From an uncultured Eubacteriales bacterium (lineage in GTDB: Bacteria; Bacillota; Clostridia; Oscillospirales; Acutalibacteraceae): a stretch of 64,000 bases of DNA. A program made the position numbers and the translations under genes. The stretch spans positions 72,416 through 136,415 of the forward strand of contig CAOSWK010000002.1 of assembly GCA_948527295.1 (NCBI GenBank), given 5' to 3'. The notes beneath the pieces were generated by a model, which made no database searches, was not told the origin of the DNA, and saw nothing but the letters and a program-made list of their open reading frames with translations. This document shows positions 1-31,211 of the stretch, piece by piece. How positions within the stretch are numbered: position 1 is the first letter of the stretch; every line of letters starts with the position of its first letter.

Positions 1-68
1 GCACAATATTTGTACATAATTATCAACTGTTTTCGTGTATACCTTTTTCCCTTCCATACTTCTTTTTG

Positions 69-97
69 TTGACATTTTGCACGTTTCAAATTATCAT
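69..97 (+). promoter_or_regulatory. SigA-type promoter candidate upstream of potABCD
   Basis: TTGACA (69-74), 17-nt spacer, TATCAT (92-97), about 55 nt upstream of the potA start. Confidence 0.4.
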
Positions 98-152
98 TTT
101 ATTTGTGCTAAAATTTTAGCGATTAAAAGGGTTTTAAAGGAGATATTTTGGG

Positions 153-1307
153 TTGGAAAAAGATGTGATAATCTCATTAAAAAATATTACTGTTTCTTTT
201 AATGGAAATACCGTTTTGAAGAATTTTAACCTTAATATAAAAAATGGCGATTTCGTTACTTTGCTGGGCTCTTCTGGCTGCGGAAAAACCACGATTTTGC
301 GCATAATCGGTGGGTTTGTTCAGCCCGATAGTGGCGAGGTTTTTTTTGCTGGCAAAAATGTTACAAAGCTGCCGGCCCATAAACGTACTGTTAACACGAT
401 ATTTCAGAATTACGCTCTTTTCCCCCATTTGAATGTATATGAGAACATCGCCTTTGGTATGCGGGTTCAGAAGAAGCCGGAGTCTCAGATACGCTCTGAG
501 GTTGCTAAGATGCTTAAAATGGTGAGCCTTTCTGGGTTTGAAAATCGAAATATTGCAAATTTATCCGGAGGTCAGCAGCAGCGCGTCGCCATCGCTCGGG
601 CGCTTGTAAATAATCCTAAGGTACTTTTGCTGGACGAACCTTTGGGGGCTCTTGACTTGAAGTTGCGCAAGGATATGCAGACCGAACTCAAAAAAATTCA
701 GCAAAAAATGGGCATCACTTTCGTTTTCGTCACGCATGATCAAGAGGAGGCGCTCTCTATGTCCGACACGGTTGTGGTTATGGACAGTGGTCAAATTCAG
801 CAAATTGGTTCACCTCAGGATATCTACAATGAGCCGAAAAACGCTTTTGTTGCGGACTTCATTGGCGAGAGTAACATTATCGACGGCATCATGCACGAGG
901 ATTACGTTGTGGAGTTTGCTGGCAGGAAGTTTGACTGCCTTGATGCTGGCTTTTTGAAAAAAGAGAATGTTGATGTTGTGATTCGGCCAGAGGATATTGA
1001 GGTTACCTCGCCAGAGGATGGCCATATTTCGGGCACAGTTACTTCGGTCACGTTTATTGGCGTGCATTATGAGATCATTGTGGACATAGACGGCTTTAAA
1101 TGGATGATTCAGTCCACCGATAGCCAAAATCCGGGCGATGTTATTGGGCTTTTGCTGCAACCGGATGACATTCACATCATGAAAAAGTCGGAGCATTCTG
1201 GCGAGTATGGCGATTACAGCGCCTTTAGTGACGAAATGTACGAGGTTTACGAGGAAAATTCGCCGGATGATGGCATCACTAAGGCTGGTGATAAAAATGA
1301 AGGTTAA
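153..1307 (+). CDS. potA: Spermidine/putrescine ABC transporter ATP-binding protein
   Basis: Walker [13 protein letters not shown] signature LSGGQQQRV, Walker B LLLDEP, C-terminal TOBE-like extension. First gene of a potABCD-ordered operon. TTG start after AAAGGAG. Confidence 0.9.
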
Positions 1308-4294: not shown

Positions 4295-5356
4295 TTGATA
4301 AATTTGTTGAGATGCTTTAAATTTATATCGTGTTTTTGTCTTTGTTGCGCGTTTGTTTTCTCGATTAATCGCGCTAATTCGACTTTTGCTTACAGCGACG
4401 ATGCCCTTGCCATCTCCCTTGCTTGCGACAATCCTTATCCGGTTAGTGGCGAAGAAATCACGCTCCGTCTGAATTTTCTGCCCTCCGCGCCCATTAATGT
4501 CTCGGCCTATCGCCTAAAAGTCAAGTTCGATAGCTCGAAGTTGTCGTACAAAGGCCTCTACTCCTACATAAACAATGACGATTTTAAAAGCTACAGAAAA
4601 GATGGCGACTTGACCGTTTTGTTTGTGACTTCTGAAAACGGCATTAATCTTAAGGCTGGCAGCGCTCAGACTATGCTTGAGCTGAATTTTAAAGTTTTAT
4701 CCAACTGCGATATCGGGCCTTTGGAGGTCTCTGCCGTTGTTGACGGCCTCTGCGATTATGATGCGGAAGCGATTCCTTTGCCAAATATCGATCCGATTGA
4801 AATTAATGTAGTTCAGACCGGCGACGCCAACTGTGACCTCGCGACTCTTTCTCTTGCTGATTATGCGATAACGCCGGCCTTTTCCGCCGATATTACCACC
4901 TACTCTGTTGACGTACCGTACTCTAAGAGCACCATAGAGTTTAGCGCTGCTCCGCTGGACGACACCGCCAATGTCAAAGCCAACCGCAAGACATTAAAAA
5001 GCGCTGGTACGGCCACGGACGTTAACTTGACGGTTACCTCTGCCGATAAGAAATCAAAAAAAGTTTATACAGTTAAGGTGAATCGGCTTAGCAAAGAGGA
5101 CTCCACTCCGGCCAACTTGAAAAGTTTGCCTACTGACGGCAACTTTGACCTTTCCACCAATAGTATCGGTATCGGCAGCCTTGATGACAGCGAAATCCCC
5201 GATGAATCCGTTGCTCAAAATAATGCTTTTGCCCTTCAGCAGGCGTCGGCGCCGCTAGTTGTTAAAGAAAGTGCTTTTAACGTCATTTTGTTTGCGGCCG
5301 TGTCCATAGTTTTTATCGGCATTTCTATTTTCATTATAAAGCGCAAAGCCCAATAA
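4295..5356 (+). CDS. Membrane-anchored surface protein: signal peptide, cohesin-like module, cadherin-like beta-sandwich domain, C-terminal TM helix
   Basis: The ~140-aa N-terminal module has a cohesin-like pattern (ITLRLNF...YRLKVKFDSSKLSYKG...LELNFKVL). CDLATLSLADYAITPAFSADITTYSVDVPY..IEFSAAP matches the Cadherin-like (PF12733-type) pattern. C-terminal FNVILFAAVSIVFIGISIFIIKRK. The exact start is uncertain (TTG 4295, no clear SD). Confidence 0.6.
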   Translation: MINLLRCFKFISCFCLCCAFVFSINRANSTFAYSDDALAISLACDNPYPVSGEEITLRLNFLPSAPINVSAYRLKVKFDSSKLSYKGLYSYINNDDFKSYRKDGDLTVLFVTSENGINLKAGSAQTMLELNFKVLSNCDIGPLEVSAVVDGLCDYDAEAIPLPNIDPIEINVVQTGDANCDLATLSLADYAITPAFSADITTYSVDVPYSKSTIEFSAAPLDDTANVKANRKTLKSAGTATDVNLTVTSADKKSKKVYTVKVNRLSKEDSTPANLKSLPTDGNFDLSTNSIGIGSLDDSEIPDESVAQNNAFALQQASAPLVVKESAFNVILFAAVSIVFIGISIFIIKRKAQ

Positions 5357-28261: not shown

Positions 28262-28380
28262 CTTAATGCTAAATTAAACTTTTTTGAATTTTTGCATTTT
28301 TGCATATACTTAATCTTTTTTGTTGAAAAATTTAATACAACATGCTAAAATAAGATTAAATATATTTTTTAGGTGATAAT

Positions 28381-29970
28381 ATGTCTAAAATTAGGAATGT
28401 AGCGGTCAGCGTCGTGTTTTCTCTGGCTCTGTTGTTTGTATTTTTGTTGCCCGCAAATTTTAGCAATCTAATCGTTCATGCGGTTGATACGCTGGAAGTT
28501 ACCGCTGGGATGATGCTTCCTGATGGGTTTGACGTTTTGCCGGACGGCAAGGGCAACTTTGTTATCACAAGTTATGATAACAACAATCAGCAAAGCACTA
28601 TAGCCTATTTAAGCGCGGCCAGCGGCATGCCTTCTCTTACGCATATCAACTACTCCCATTTTATCGTAACCGAAAACATCGACTACAAGTACACTACTGC
28701 GAGCTGTTATAGAGATCTTTCATTCGGTTTAGAAAATTGCGTTTTATTTACTTATCTAGACGCAGATAAAACGGTTGCCAAAAAAATCTCTATTGACGTT
28801 GAAAATTGCCAGTGTGATGGCTCCGGCACTTTAGACTTGGGCAGTATAATCATTGATTCGCCCCTTAAAATCGCTGTGTACGATGATTTTATCTTTTTTG
28901 TAAATAATACCGAAAAATCGCCTATCTCTGGCTATAATTCTAATTTTGAGCAATTGGACACGACGGGCTTAACTTACGATAACAAAGCTTTTCACTCTAT
29001 TTTTACGGACGTCTCCAAAAAATATCTGTATGCCTTGAATAGCTCTAACGATCTGGTGCGTTACAACATTGCTACCGGTAATTACACATTCGAAGCCCCC
29101 GAAAATACTATAAACTTTTCAAATTTGAAATTTGTAACCGATAATATCTTTGTGACGCCCGACAAACGGATAATCACTCTGAATAAAGATAGCTTTAAGT
29201 CCGACTCCGAAGTTGAAATTGCCGCAGAAATAACGGACTTTCCAGCTTGCGTGGTTGCCGGTTTTGACGATGCGTCGATTTTAATTAAAACTGAGGATAA
29301 GGTGATCTCGCGGATTCGTTGCTCGGACGGTGCTGTGACTGGCAAAATTGAGCTGACTGAGAATGTTTTGGCCATTTCTAAATCTGGCGATAAAATTATC
29401 GCTGTTACTGGCGCGGGCACCGGCAGTAATAAGCATATCGCTCTGCTAAAGGAGACTGACATAAAAGAGGTAACTCCTGCCAATCCCAGCAACCCTGGTG
29501 GCGGTAGTTCTGGTGATGGTGGCGATAATAACAATCCGCCGTCTGGTGCAGATGACGCCATAACTAGCGATATTTATACTGTTGACGCACAAAATCTCAC
29601 TATCACCGGCATTGAGCCGGGGACGACTTTTGCGGCGTTTAAAAATAACCTCATTTTTAATGGCTACAATCTGGGACTTAAAAAAGGTGCTACTGCTAAG
29701 CCCATCTACGCAAGTTCGACCAAAGTCGCTACTGGTAACTTTGCCTCCTTTGAAAGAGATGGCGCCGAAAAGGTTTTGTTTAAGCTTATTGTTACGGGCG
29801 ACATTACTGGCACGGGGACTTTGAACTCTCGCGATATTTCTGCTTTTGAAAATTATCTGTTGGGTAAGACTGAGCTAAATGAAGAATCCTTGCAAGCGGC
29901 GAATATAAATGGTGACGGCGACCAAGACGTTATTGACCTGTTTTTGATGAGCAAACTTATGCAAAAATAG
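28381..29970 (+). CDS. Secreted protein with a C-terminal dockerin module
   Basis: Signal peptide. P/G/N-rich linker (PANPSNPGGGSSGDGGDNNNPPSG). C-terminal duplicated Ca-loop/helix pair (GDITGTGTLNSRDISAFENYLLG and ANINGDGDQDVIDLFLMSKL) resembling a type I dockerin. Confidence 0.6.
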   Translation: MSKIRNVAVSVVFSLALLFVFLLPANFSNLIVHAVDTLEVTAGMMLPDGFDVLPDGKGNFVITSYDNNNQQSTIAYLSAASGMPSLTHINYSHFIVTENIDYKYTTASCYRDLSFGLENCVLFTYLDADKTVAKKISIDVENCQCDGSGTLDLGSIIIDSPLKIAVYDDFIFFVNNTEKSPISGYNSNFEQLDTTGLTYDNKAFHSIFTDVSKKYLYALNSSNDLVRYNIATGNYTFEAPENTINFSNLKFVTDNIFVTPDKRIITLNKDSFKSDSEVEIAAEITDFPACVVAGFDDASILIKTEDKVISRIRCSDGAVTGKIELTENVLAISKSGDKIIAVTGAGTGSNKHIALLKETDIKEVTPANPSNPGGGSSGDGGDNNNPPSGADDAITSDIYTVDAQNLTITGIEPGTTFAAFKNNLIFNGYNLGLKKGATAKPIYASSTKVATGNFASFERDGAEKVLFKLIVTGDITGTGTLNSRDISAFENYLLGKTELNEESLQAANINGDGDQDVIDLFLMSKLMQK

Positions 29971-30023
29971 GGTCTTTTTTGCGCTCAAACGGCTAGAGTT
30001 ACGCGGTGTGGAGGTGAACCTGC

Positions 30024-31211
30024 ATGGAAAGTCTTGCGATTCTTTACGACAGCGAGGTGATTAACAATCTGCTGCCGATATTTGCCTTTCACCCCAAAAA
30101 TGTGGTGATTCTTTACGACTACAAATACACTAGCGTTAAGCATCTTGAGTACATAAAAAATGTCTGTATGTCGCGCTTTCCGAGCATTATTTTTGAATAT
30201 AAGGGCTACAACGGGCTTGACATCGAGCATATCTCCAAAACTTGCGTCTCTGTTATTCACAAAAATCCCTCCTGCTTTTTCGACATCACCGGCGCTGGCG
30301 AGTTTGGCGCGATTGGGGCTTATCAGGCCTGCAGAAAAACTTTTACACCAATTTTTAAGCTGGACGTTTTGGGCGAGCGGCTCATAAATGTTTTTGGATG
30401 CAAGTCGCTCGAGAAAAATTTTGTGATGCCAAAACTCAATATAGAAAATATTTTCGCCCTGCACGGTGCGCAAATCACCGGTTATAATCACGCTAGCCCC
30501 GCTTGTGACAATTTTGATCGGATACTAAAATTTTGCGCGGCGGTTTTTGACGATATCGAACTCTGGAAAAAGACTTGCCTCTACTTGCAAAGCGGCAATA
30601 CCAACTTTTCGCAAGGGTACAATAATCTGTTTTTTAAGGCGCCCAAACAGATCTCTAAAGGCAAATTGGAGGTCTCTTTAAACCGATTCAAGCTGCTTAA
30701 AGTGGCGCAGGAGCTAAATCTTATTTACAAGCTTGACACGAGTTCTTCTGAGATTTCTTTTTTCTATCACGACAAAAAGATTAAGTCATATCTGTCGGAC
30801 TTTGGCATCTGGCTGGAGCTTTTTTGTTACATCAACCTAAAGCGCGAGCGGCTGTTTCACGACGTGCGCATGAGCGTGAAGTTTGAGTGGAATAACAACA
30901 AAAATAAGCTTATGGAGATCGTCAACGAAATCGATCTGACCTTCTTCTACGGCATTCACCCATATTTTATCTCCTGCAAGCTCTCAGAGCCCTCGGCCGA
31001 CGCCCTGCGTGAGCTTAGCATGTATCCCTCCTATTTTGGCGGCAATAACTCTAAAAGCGCACTCGTTTTCGTCAGCAAAGTCAACAAGCAGCGCTCGTAT
31101 ACCTACACCCGCGCACACGATATGGGCATCTGTGTCATCGACGGTGACATGATTAAAAGCGGAAAATTTATTAGCGAGATAAAAAAATCTCTCAACATAA
31201 AAAAGCAATAA
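30024..31211 (+). CDS. Card1/Can2-like (DUF1887-type) protein: CARF-like N-terminal domain fused to a PD-(D/E)xK-like nuclease domain
   Basis: N-terminal Rossmann-like half (LAILYDSEVINNLLPIF..NVVILYD; FFDITGAGEF resembling the CARF DxTGGTK loop). C-terminal restriction-endonuclease-like pattern (WLELFCY ... NEIDLTFFY ... YFISCKLS). Strong SD GGAGGTGA 6 nt before ATG 30024. Confidence 0.6.
   Translation: MESLAILYDSEVINNLLPIFAFHPKNVVILYDYKYTSVKHLEYIKNVCMSRFPSIIFEYKGYNGLDIEHISKTCVSVIHKNPSCFFDITGAGEFGAIGAYQACRKTFTPIFKLDVLGERLINVFGCKSLEKNFVMPKLNIENIFALHGAQITGYNHASPACDNFDRILKFCAAVFDDIELWKKTCLYLQSGNTNFSQGYNNLFFKAPKQISKGKLEVSLNRFKLLKVAQELNLIYKLDTSSSEISFFYHDKKIKSYLSDFGIWLELFCYINLKRERLFHDVRMSVKFEWNNNKNKLMEIVNEIDLTFFYGIHPYFISCKLSEPSADALRELSMYPSYFGGNNSKSALVFVSKVNKQRSYTYTRAHDMGICVIDGDMIKSGKFISEIKKSLNIKKQ

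Follow-up and report, generated by a model that had tools for sequence, protein, structure and literature searches.

The stretch analysed here, which we call the window, comprises 64,000 nucleotides (nt) from an uncultured Eubacteriales bacterium of the Acutalibacteraceae (assembly GCA_948527295.1, contig CAOSWK010000002.1, positions 72,416 to 136,415). Near its middle lies a gene for a protein of 395 amino acids (aa) which, by sequence profiles and predicted fold, belongs to the Can2/Card1 (DUF1887) family, in which a CARF domain is joined to a PD-(D/E)xK nuclease domain. Its characterised relatives are ancillary nucleases of type III CRISPR systems switched on by cyclic tetra-adenylate (cA4), one of the cyclic oligoadenylates (cOA). 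The gene lies 53 nt behind an open reading frame for a dockerin-bearing protein, as the first-pass annotation of the sequence had reported (Table 1). That annotation also placed the gene in a low-GC islet. The gene is only mildly lower in GC than its flanks (43.6% against 45-50%), and the truly low-GC part of the window is the stretch at 31-35 kb.

Table 1. Features of the locus and of two homologous loci; positions are those of the window unless residues or another record are named.
Feature	Position	Strand	Evidence or remark
Cohesin-domain gene, 353 aa: signal peptide, cohesin, cadherin-like β-sandwich, C-terminal transmembrane anchor	4295..5356	+	only cohesin of the genome
Tandem 8-mer TTTTGCAT TTTTGCAT	28290..28305	+	just upstream of the -35 element of the partner gene
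σA-type promoter-like site, extended -10 (TTGAAA, 17 nt, TGCTAAAAT)	28323..28351	+	best consensus match of the region, 10/12, with TG
Dockerin-bearing partner, 529 aa	28381..29970	+	Pfam Dockerin_1 (PF00404), 30 bits against a cut-off of 22.9; AlphaFold2 model
Partner, signal/anchor helix	N-terminal		
Partner, seven-bladed β-propeller	residues ~37-356		
Partner, disordered P/G/N-rich linker	residues 368-391		
Partner, β-sandwich	residues 394-471		
Partner, type I dockerin	residues 473-525		
Partner segments replaced in a ~95%-identical strain	28400..28477 and 29681..29761		76-79 nt, unrelated sequence of similar length
Intergenic spacer, 53 nt, with Shine-Dalgarno GGAGGTGA 7 nt before the ATG	29971..30023	+	read directly
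Can2/Card1-like protein, 395 aa	30024..31211	+	boundaries exact; contains every peptide quoted in the first-pass annotation
CARF domain	residues ~1-135		
Helical/β insertion domain	residues ~136-250		
PD-(D/E)xK nuclease domain	residues ~251-395		
D9, position of SthCan2 cA4 contact Ser19 (Asp9 in VC1899)	30048..30050	+	phmmer and profile alignments; D/N in 59/60 homologs
D32, position of SthCan2 cA4 contact Thr42 (Asp34 in VC1899)	30117..30119	+	both alignments; D in 58/60 homologs
Motif II loop T89-G-A-G-E93 in place of TGGTK; E93 at the Lys99 position	30288..30302	+	E in 57/60 homologs
K112, position of SthCan2 cA4 contact Tyr118	30357..30359	+	both alignments; K in 49/60 homologs
E265, first Glu of the E-ExD-(E/S)CK motif, in WLE	30816..30818	+	invariant, 98/98; aligns with the Can2 and VC1899 helix FEHY/WLE
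E302-I-D304, ExD metal-binding element, in NEID	30927..30935	+	invariant, 98/98; aligned to NELD of SthCan2
S317-C-K319, (E/S)CK element	30972..30980	+	invariant, 98/98; aligned to ECK of 7BDV, 1XMX and 8BAO
E330, helix after the SCK strand	31011..31013		
Example of the lit-DUF2953-ytfJ string	L088 1..4194 (Clostridium sp. ASF356)		also in L105 (A. lactatifermentans DSM 14214)
Gene for outlier homolog P0062	L031 178..1098		25% identity

To place the protein we searched profile and structure databases. The PADLOC profile CARF4--CARF_PDDEXK matches it end to end (2e-52), and phmmer against the PDB retrieves the Can2 structure 7BDV (1.9e-5). A profile of 60 homologs retrieves 7BDV at 1.3e-16, together with VC1899 (1XMX; 6e-7) and 8BAO (2.6e-5). 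The Pfam family Card1_endonuc scores 24.2 bits, slightly below its cut-off of 26.4, and no NCBIfam model was found for the protein. A monomer model was built with AlphaFold2 on the alignment of 60 homologs and is of high confidence (predicted local distance difference test score, pLDDT, 91.4; predicted template modelling score, pTM, 0.89). Its best fold match is VC1899 (template modelling score, TM, 0.71/0.74), followed by SthCan2, Cdn1, Card1, the Dysgonamonadaceae Can2 and TbrCan2, and the top 23 matches are all Can2, Card1, VC1899, Cdn1 or Can1 structures. The two-domain Card1/Can2-like layout read from the letters in the first-pass annotation is thus borne out by the PADLOC profile, by the family profile against the PDB and by the fold search, and the profile and structure checks that it had proposed returned matches to both the CARF and the PD-(D/E)xK domain.

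Conservation was assessed on an alignment of 98 non-identical homologs (21-98% identity), and a maximum-likelihood tree was computed from the 98 proteins. The homologs with a dockerin gene upstream form one clade (100/98), the exceptions being a locus with a truncated upstream region, one 183-aa insertion and one basal long branch. This dockerin-linked clade is sister (99/94) to a clade made up of a monophyletic YtfJ-linked group (100/99) and a small partner-less Anaerocolumna/P0062 branch. Homologs of the sister clade, 26-32% identical to the protein, come from Lachnospirales; Clostridium sp. ASF356 and Anaerotignum lactatifermentans DSM 14214 are cultured hosts of this group. Further, intermediate Can2-like clades from the order of the window's bacterium have neither a dockerin nor a YtfJ partner, and no Cas10.

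The nuclease site is intact. Out of all alignment columns only ten are invariant among the 98 homologs (G261, E265, N301, E302, D304, S317, C318, K319, G339 and G340). Because these sole invariant columns include the catalytic E, ExD and SCK residues, the catalytic site appears to be the most constrained part of the family. The published Can2 nuclease consensus is E-ExD-(E/S)CK (PMC10783487), and the motif is complete in the 395-aa protein, which fits this consensus exactly. In SthCan2 the E276A/D278A substitution abolishes activity (PMC7969007). In both the phmmer and the profile alignments ISCK aligns to the IECK or VECK of three solved relatives, so that the S-C-K noticed at the ExK position in the first-pass annotation is real. 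Its description there as unusual, and as a sign of altered catalysis, does not hold: the published consensus has (E/S)CK and serine is found in an active Can2 clade, where TbrCan2 is an active enzyme whose Ser in place of the ExK Glu shares in outer-sphere Mn2+ coordination (PMC10783487). Altered or lost catalysis as a reading of S-C-K is rejected on the same consensus. Judged by sequence, S-C-K is a normal Can2 variant that gives no evidence of altered catalysis and, with its motif intact, the nuclease is probably active.

One further residue near the site deserves mention. In some restriction enzymes a change in the ExK element is compensated by another acidic residue. Here E330 is invariant in both partner-linked clades, while VC1899, 8BAO and 8 of 19 intermediate-clade proteins have Lys at this position. 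By analogy, E330 could compensate acidically for the Glu to Ser change.

The conservation of the catalytic residues also bears on the idea that the protein is a catalytically silent, Csa3-like CARF regulator that binds DNA or RNA, controlling for instance the upstream surface-protein gene. CARF regulators such as Csa3 exist, the CARF domain of our model has distant fold matches to Csa3, the gene is tightly linked to one partner gene, and VC1899 has almost no activity in vitro with an intact motif (PMC7969007). Nevertheless, conservation is strongest precisely at the catalytic E, ExD and SCK, as selection for catalysis predicts, the protein has no helix-turn-helix or winged helix-turn-helix domain, and the sister clade has an entirely different upstream gene. 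We consider such a regulator quite unlikely.

The CARF half is a different matter. The motif NxTGGTK is conserved across all seven Can2 clades (PMC10783487), and the conserved cA4 contacts of Can2 and Can1 are Ser19, Thr42, Lys99 and Tyr118 in SthCan2 numbering (PMC7969007). In the phmmer and profile alignments the DITGAGE of the present protein aligns to the NVTGGTK of SthCan2, which places E93 at Lys99. The family's NxTGGTK thus reads D-I-T-G-A-G-E here and all four cA4 contacts are replaced (Table 1). The loss of the ligand-loop lysine (TGAGE for TGGTK) suspected in the first-pass annotation is therefore real. That annotation had proposed an alignment to characterised Card1 and Can2 proteins, and in ours the canonical Lys was not recovered and each of the four contact positions had changed. 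As far as sequence can tell, the departure of the CARF domain is genuine and deeper than a single Lys change.

The replacement residues are themselves conserved. In the sister clade (n=42) D9 and D32 are each found in 42/42 proteins and position 93 is Glu in 38/42 and Asp in another 3/42, with Tyr or His at position 112. Within the TGGTK loop, the second Gly and the Thr positions also vary among the 60 homologs, besides the final Lys to Glu change. The intermediate Can2-like clades have more variable loops (TGGSS, TGGDK, TGGDE, TGGGD) and keep S-C-K. In the model D9, D32, E93 and K112 map to the loops expected to bind the CARF ligand (those following β1 and β4, and the one at the end of β2). 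The rebuilt pocket appears to be functional in its own right because the acidic D/D/E set is conserved at about 27% overall identity, at which a pocket without function should drift. A sensor for a different ligand, one of the three possibilities raised at the outset, stays the best reading and is strengthened by the four replaced contacts, which are mostly acidic and conserved.

The CARF domain also carries conserved cysteines. C3, C48, C74, C103 and C126 are nearly invariant in the dockerin-linked clade, and the corresponding residues are T, F, T, G and N-K in the sister clade. The distribution of C84, C171 and C185 is wider than that of these five. A family-wide metal or Fe-S site formed by the five-cysteine cluster was considered and rejected, the cluster being absent from the sister clade.

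We next consider whether the gene is decaying. In comparisons with two close relatives (98% and 94% identical) the ratio of nonsynonymous to synonymous substitution rates (dN/dS) is 0.043 and 0.040, and about 100 homologs have an intact reading frame. Being an orphan that has lost the canonical CARF motif, the gene resembles a function-less remnant of a lost type III system, which the first-pass annotation had listed among its possibilities. A remnant is contradicted by the dN/dS of 0.04, by the intact frames and by the ten invariant residues of the nuclease domain. The replacement pocket residues are conserved as well, the gene is kept in streamlined genomes of 1.0-1.5 Mb, and its operon partner and promoter are conserved with it. 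Decay is hardly credible.

The absence of a CRISPR partner was examined from the window outwards. No cas gene, CRISPR array or cyclase was found in the 64 kb, as first noted, and this extends to the genome: the source assembly is 99% complete with 2.3% contamination, spans 1.28 Mb and has 3,073 masked bases (0.24%; longest run 791). A search of this assembly for type III genes and arrays, suggested in the first-pass annotation, returned no Csm1, Cas10 palm domain, RAMP or SMODS match at E <= 1, other cyclase families not having been searched, and a k-mer scan of the genome found no CRISPR array. Three k-mer candidates proved to be plain tandem repeats whose "spacers" repeat too. These repeats lie outside the window, at C1:4966-5350 (~147 nt, TGT/ACA-rich), C2:216130-216310 (~60 nt, GAT/GAA-rich) and C8:13930-14130 (~66 nt).

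The same picture holds for relatives. Among 301 sampled genomes of the order, 34 have a Can2-like gene and 7 a clear Cas10, and the two sets do not overlap. For the close clade we found 31 genomes through named GenBank records, most of them 1.0-1.5 Mb in size. Cas10 is absent from 30 of these and lies on another contig in the remaining one (G323), which still has the dockerin-Can2-like pair. No cas gene was found in any of the 16-20 kb neighbourhoods sampled, nor any cyclase, including the CD-NTases (SMODS) of the CBASS type. In the sister clade, Cas10 is absent from A. lactatifermentans and from NSJ-143, and in ASF356 it lies 1.6 Mb from the Can2-like gene.

An ordinary cA4-activated Can2 working in trans, with a type III system or another cOA synthase elsewhere in the cell or on a mobile element, would explain why the fold and the nuclease motif are those of Can2, and the distant Cas10 genes of G323 and ASF356 would suit it. 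It would require a cOA source that the nearly complete and sparsely masked genome does not offer among the families searched, and that 30/31 clade genomes and 34/34 Can2-like-positive genomes of the order do not offer as Cas10. It would also require cA4 to bind in a pocket where none of the four contacts is kept and three have given way to acidic or charge-reversed residues, and there is no cas gene in the sampled neighbourhoods. For this genome and clade we reject the trans-wired effector put forward in the first-pass annotation and hold an ordinary Can2 to be very improbable.

The dockerin-bearing gene, in contrast, is no incidental neighbour, as it had been taken to be, but a conserved operon partner. 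We built hidden Markov models (HMMs) from its C-terminal β-sandwich and dockerin and ran them on all fetched loci. The partner was found upstream in 31 of 32 evaluable clade genome loci, plus one more by eye (L039), and no other clade has it. Eight divergent metagenomic contexts (42-62% identity) differ in all other neighbours, but each (8/8) has a Dockerin_1 gene immediately upstream on the same strand; Dockerin_1 scores of the partners of eight relatives are 34.8-47.3 bits. Across the clade the gap between the two genes has a median of 30 nt and a range of 1-114 nt, with one outlier of 731 nt, and some pairs overlap. The pair is also present in a strain about 95% identical (runs X1-X4, assembled contigs of flat depth). 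The partner constitutes its own family with 67 full-length homologs and holds the only dockerin domain of the genome. Its AlphaFold2 model has a pLDDT of 83.6 overall and >90 in the propeller, whose fold matches are WD40-type propellers.

The two genes are likely to be co-transcribed. No promoter-like or terminator-like site is predicted in the 53-nt gap, and the predicted promoter upstream of the partner (Table 1) probably drives both genes. This promoter motif, together with a GGTGAT Shine-Dalgarno sequence, also precedes the partner gene in relatives with as little as about 50% identity in the Can2-like protein. From the single upstream sequence, reading the site as a promoter for a sporulation sigma factor was ambiguous; comparative footprinting pointed to a σA-type extended -10 element, and hence to a vegetative promoter. 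The tandem 8-mer just upstream of the -35 element is kept in the closest relatives (L032 and L036) and not in more distant ones, and could be an operator.

The partner differs from the nuclease in its mode of evolution. Its dN/dS of 0.23-0.25 means that the protein changes about six times faster than the nuclease, and fast evolution of this kind is often seen in surface and phage-exposed proteins. In the ~95%-identical strain two segments of the partner gene are replaced and the rest aligns. They sit just after the start, in the signal/anchor region, and in the β-sandwich just before the dockerin, and look like local hypervariable patches. An antigenic-variation cassette was considered for the partner and rejected, since the genome's sole dockerin gene leaves no silent copies. 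The window also contains the only cohesin gene of the genome, and one cohesin with one dockerin would form a minimal surface-display system in this 1.28-Mb genome.

A surface-displayed, fast-evolving partner is what one might expect of a non-CRISPR anti-phage effector, that is, a two-layer cassette in which the nuclease is triggered through the remodelled CARF domain by an infection signal other than cOA and the surface protein acts at the level of adsorption. The characterised relatives are all defence nucleases (PMC7969007, PMC10783487), and the pair stays together while other neighbours change. The tree, however, suggests largely vertical inheritance and one origin of the pairing, unlike the patchy distribution of defence islands. 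Neither does any neighbour match a defence family, as PADLOC gave no convincing match among the neighbours of the pair and only a coiled-coil match to LmuB at 6.8e-4, and no mobility genes lie nearby. The dN/dS of 0.04 and the retention in reduced genomes look housekeeping-like, and in the sister clade the gene belongs to a core sporulation operon. We regard an anti-phage role as unlikely, though it deserves to be kept in mind.

Some other genes lie near the pair in relatives. MecA lies two genes upstream in the contexts of two relatives and a ClpC-like AAA+ gene (Clp_N-AAA-UVR-AAA_2) directly downstream in a third (among L023/L024, L025 and L030), with TfoX_N downstream in one. All three are linked to competence or proteolysis, and the co-occurrences are too few to interpret.

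In the Lachnospirales the Can2-like gene ends a conserved string made up of a small open reading frame, Lit (PF07314), a DUF2953/YtfI-like gene and YtfJ (PF09579). A YtfJ HMM matches the upstream open reading frame in 38 of 43 loci (among L068-L111), with a median gap of 19 nt and gaps of 5-76 nt in all but two loci. The gene ytfJ (gerW) is a widely conserved sporulation gene of the σF, or forespore, regulon (PMC3416734; bioRxiv 10.1101/2022.02.25.481979), and its position upstream suggests that the sister-clade nuclease is co-expressed in the forespore. None of the papers in the collection searched connects DUF1887 with sporulation. YtfJ is present in 287 of the 301 genomes of the order, so that carriers and non-carriers of the Can2-like gene are indistinguishable by profile. 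The outlier P0062 groups with the partner-less Anaerocolumna proteins inside the sister clade, and its gene is preceded by one for a 306-aa protein with a Big_2 Ig-like domain, a probable surface protein.

On balance we think it probable that the gene represents a conserved, CRISPR-independent branch of Can2/Card1 in small-genome gut bacteria of the Acutalibacteraceae and Oscillospiraceae, which has been domesticated to a host function. By analogy with Can2 the protein would be a homodimeric, metal-dependent nuclease or nickase. Its CARF pocket would no longer bind cA4 and the enzyme would not be gated by it, because the cA4 contacts are replaced and VC1899, with the same two Asp residues, is not regulated by cA4 either. 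The acidic pocket may instead bind another ligand, probably cationic or metal-bridged, or a segment of a partner protein, and thereby gate the nuclease. The predicted shared σA-type promoter would have the nuclease produced together with the surface protein in vegetative cells. The evidence favours a domesticated function in the biology of the cell envelope or of development over one in classical cOA-triggered defence. Three points speak for it: the place of the sister-clade gene in the forespore lit-ytfI-ytfJ operon, the retention of the gene in reduced genomes, and constraint of housekeeping grade.

Several points weigh against a domesticated nuclease. In VC1899, the nearest orphan precedent, an intact motif goes with hardly any activity in vitro (PMC7969007). 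Nuclease activity and ligand binding are argued from sequence and model, the pocket was mapped by sequence-to-structure alignments at about 15% identity, and the case for co-transcription is built only on gene spacing, shared strand and consensus scans. It is not obvious by what mechanism a nuclease of the cytoplasm and a secreted protein of the surface would be linked, and the two genes may be neighbours only because they are regulated together. The link to sporulation is seen only in the sister clade and cannot be carried over directly to the dockerin-linked clade, because there the promoter looks vegetative and ytfJ lies on another contig. Finally, most clade genomes are metagenome-assembled genomes of unstated completeness.

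A wider form of the domestication reading would take in the whole Clostridia branch of Can2, with the D/D/E pocket sensing a cationic or metal-bridged non-cOA ligand, for instance a divalent cation, polyamine or metabolite associated with spores, and gating a housekeeping nuclease tied to envelope or developmental programmes. On this view the nuclease would be made along with the surface β-propeller/dockerin protein in Oscillospirales, and with YtfI/YtfJ in the forespore in Lachnospirales. We offer this reading tentatively, as a generalisation that we would not yet expect to hold. If true, it would be the first case of a CARF effector whose ligand and role are physiological and not immune.

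To our knowledge, the characterised CARF effectors all receive second messengers from type III CRISPR systems, and what orphan CARF proteins do has been an open question since the structure of VC1899 was deposited in 2004. The present locus is no one-off but belongs to a strongly constrained Can2 branch of about 100 genes in two sister clades. This branch keeps the nuclease and swaps the cA4-binding residues for an acidic set, nearly all in genomes without Cas10, many of which are only 1.0-1.5 Mb. Its two different conserved operon contexts, a surface dockerin protein on the one hand and the ytfI-ytfJ forespore genes on the other, are concrete starting points for finding its function, and the presence of the sister clade in cultured strains (Clostridium sp. 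ASF356 and A. lactatifermentans DSM 14214) makes the question experimentally tractable. If the pocket binds a new ligand, the range of CARF signalling is widened; if it does not, the branch is a clean case of a nuclease that went from defence to a host function.

Compared with the cA4-activated Can2 and Card1 (SthCan2, 7BDV; TresuCard1, 6WXW/6XL1; Cdn1, 9U49), the protein has the same three-part architecture, a similar length, the E-ExD-(E/S)CK motif and a fold that matches with TM scores of ~0.63-0.69 by query length. It differs from them in reading D-I-T-G-A-G-E for NxTGGTK and D/D/E/K for the cA4 contacts S19/T42/K99/Y118, in the lack of type III genes from its own genome and nearly all clade genomes, and in an operon partner that is not a cas gene. 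TbrCan2, a clade 1 Can2 from a type III-D system (8Q3Y and related structures), also has Ser for the ExK Glu and is nonetheless an active Mn-dependent nuclease (PMC10783487). TbrCan2, however, reads SxTTS...K, with a displaced Lys, where the present protein has S-C-K, keeps NxTGGTK, is strictly cA4-dependent and is a weaker structural match (TM ~0.55).

VC1899 of Vibrio cholerae, the founding DUF1887 orphan, is the best structural match of the query and has Asp at the Ser19 and Thr42 positions (Asp9 and Asp34), as does the query with D9 and D32. It has no type III association, cA4 does not regulate it, and its pocket carries negative charge (PMC7969007). It is not known to have a dockerin or YtfJ partner. 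Yet VC1899 keeps Arg at the Lys99 position where Glu is found here, has ECK for SCK and comes from a different phylum, and at 15% identity and a profile match of 6e-7 it is distant, so that close kinship is not supported. The YtfJ-linked Can2-like proteins of the Lachnospirales share the D9/D32/E93 triad and the invariant nuclease residues, and in the two cultured hosts examined they are likewise not adjacent to type III genes; they differ in having ytfJ rather than a dockerin gene upstream, Tyr or His rather than Lys at position 112, and only 26-32% identity. The family itself (through the PADLOC/CARF-census profile), the S-C-K variant and orphan DUF1887 proteins are thus already catalogued. 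What is new is a large, constrained, CRISPR-independent Can2 branch in which a conserved acidic set stands in for the cA4 site and which occurs in two conserved operon contexts.

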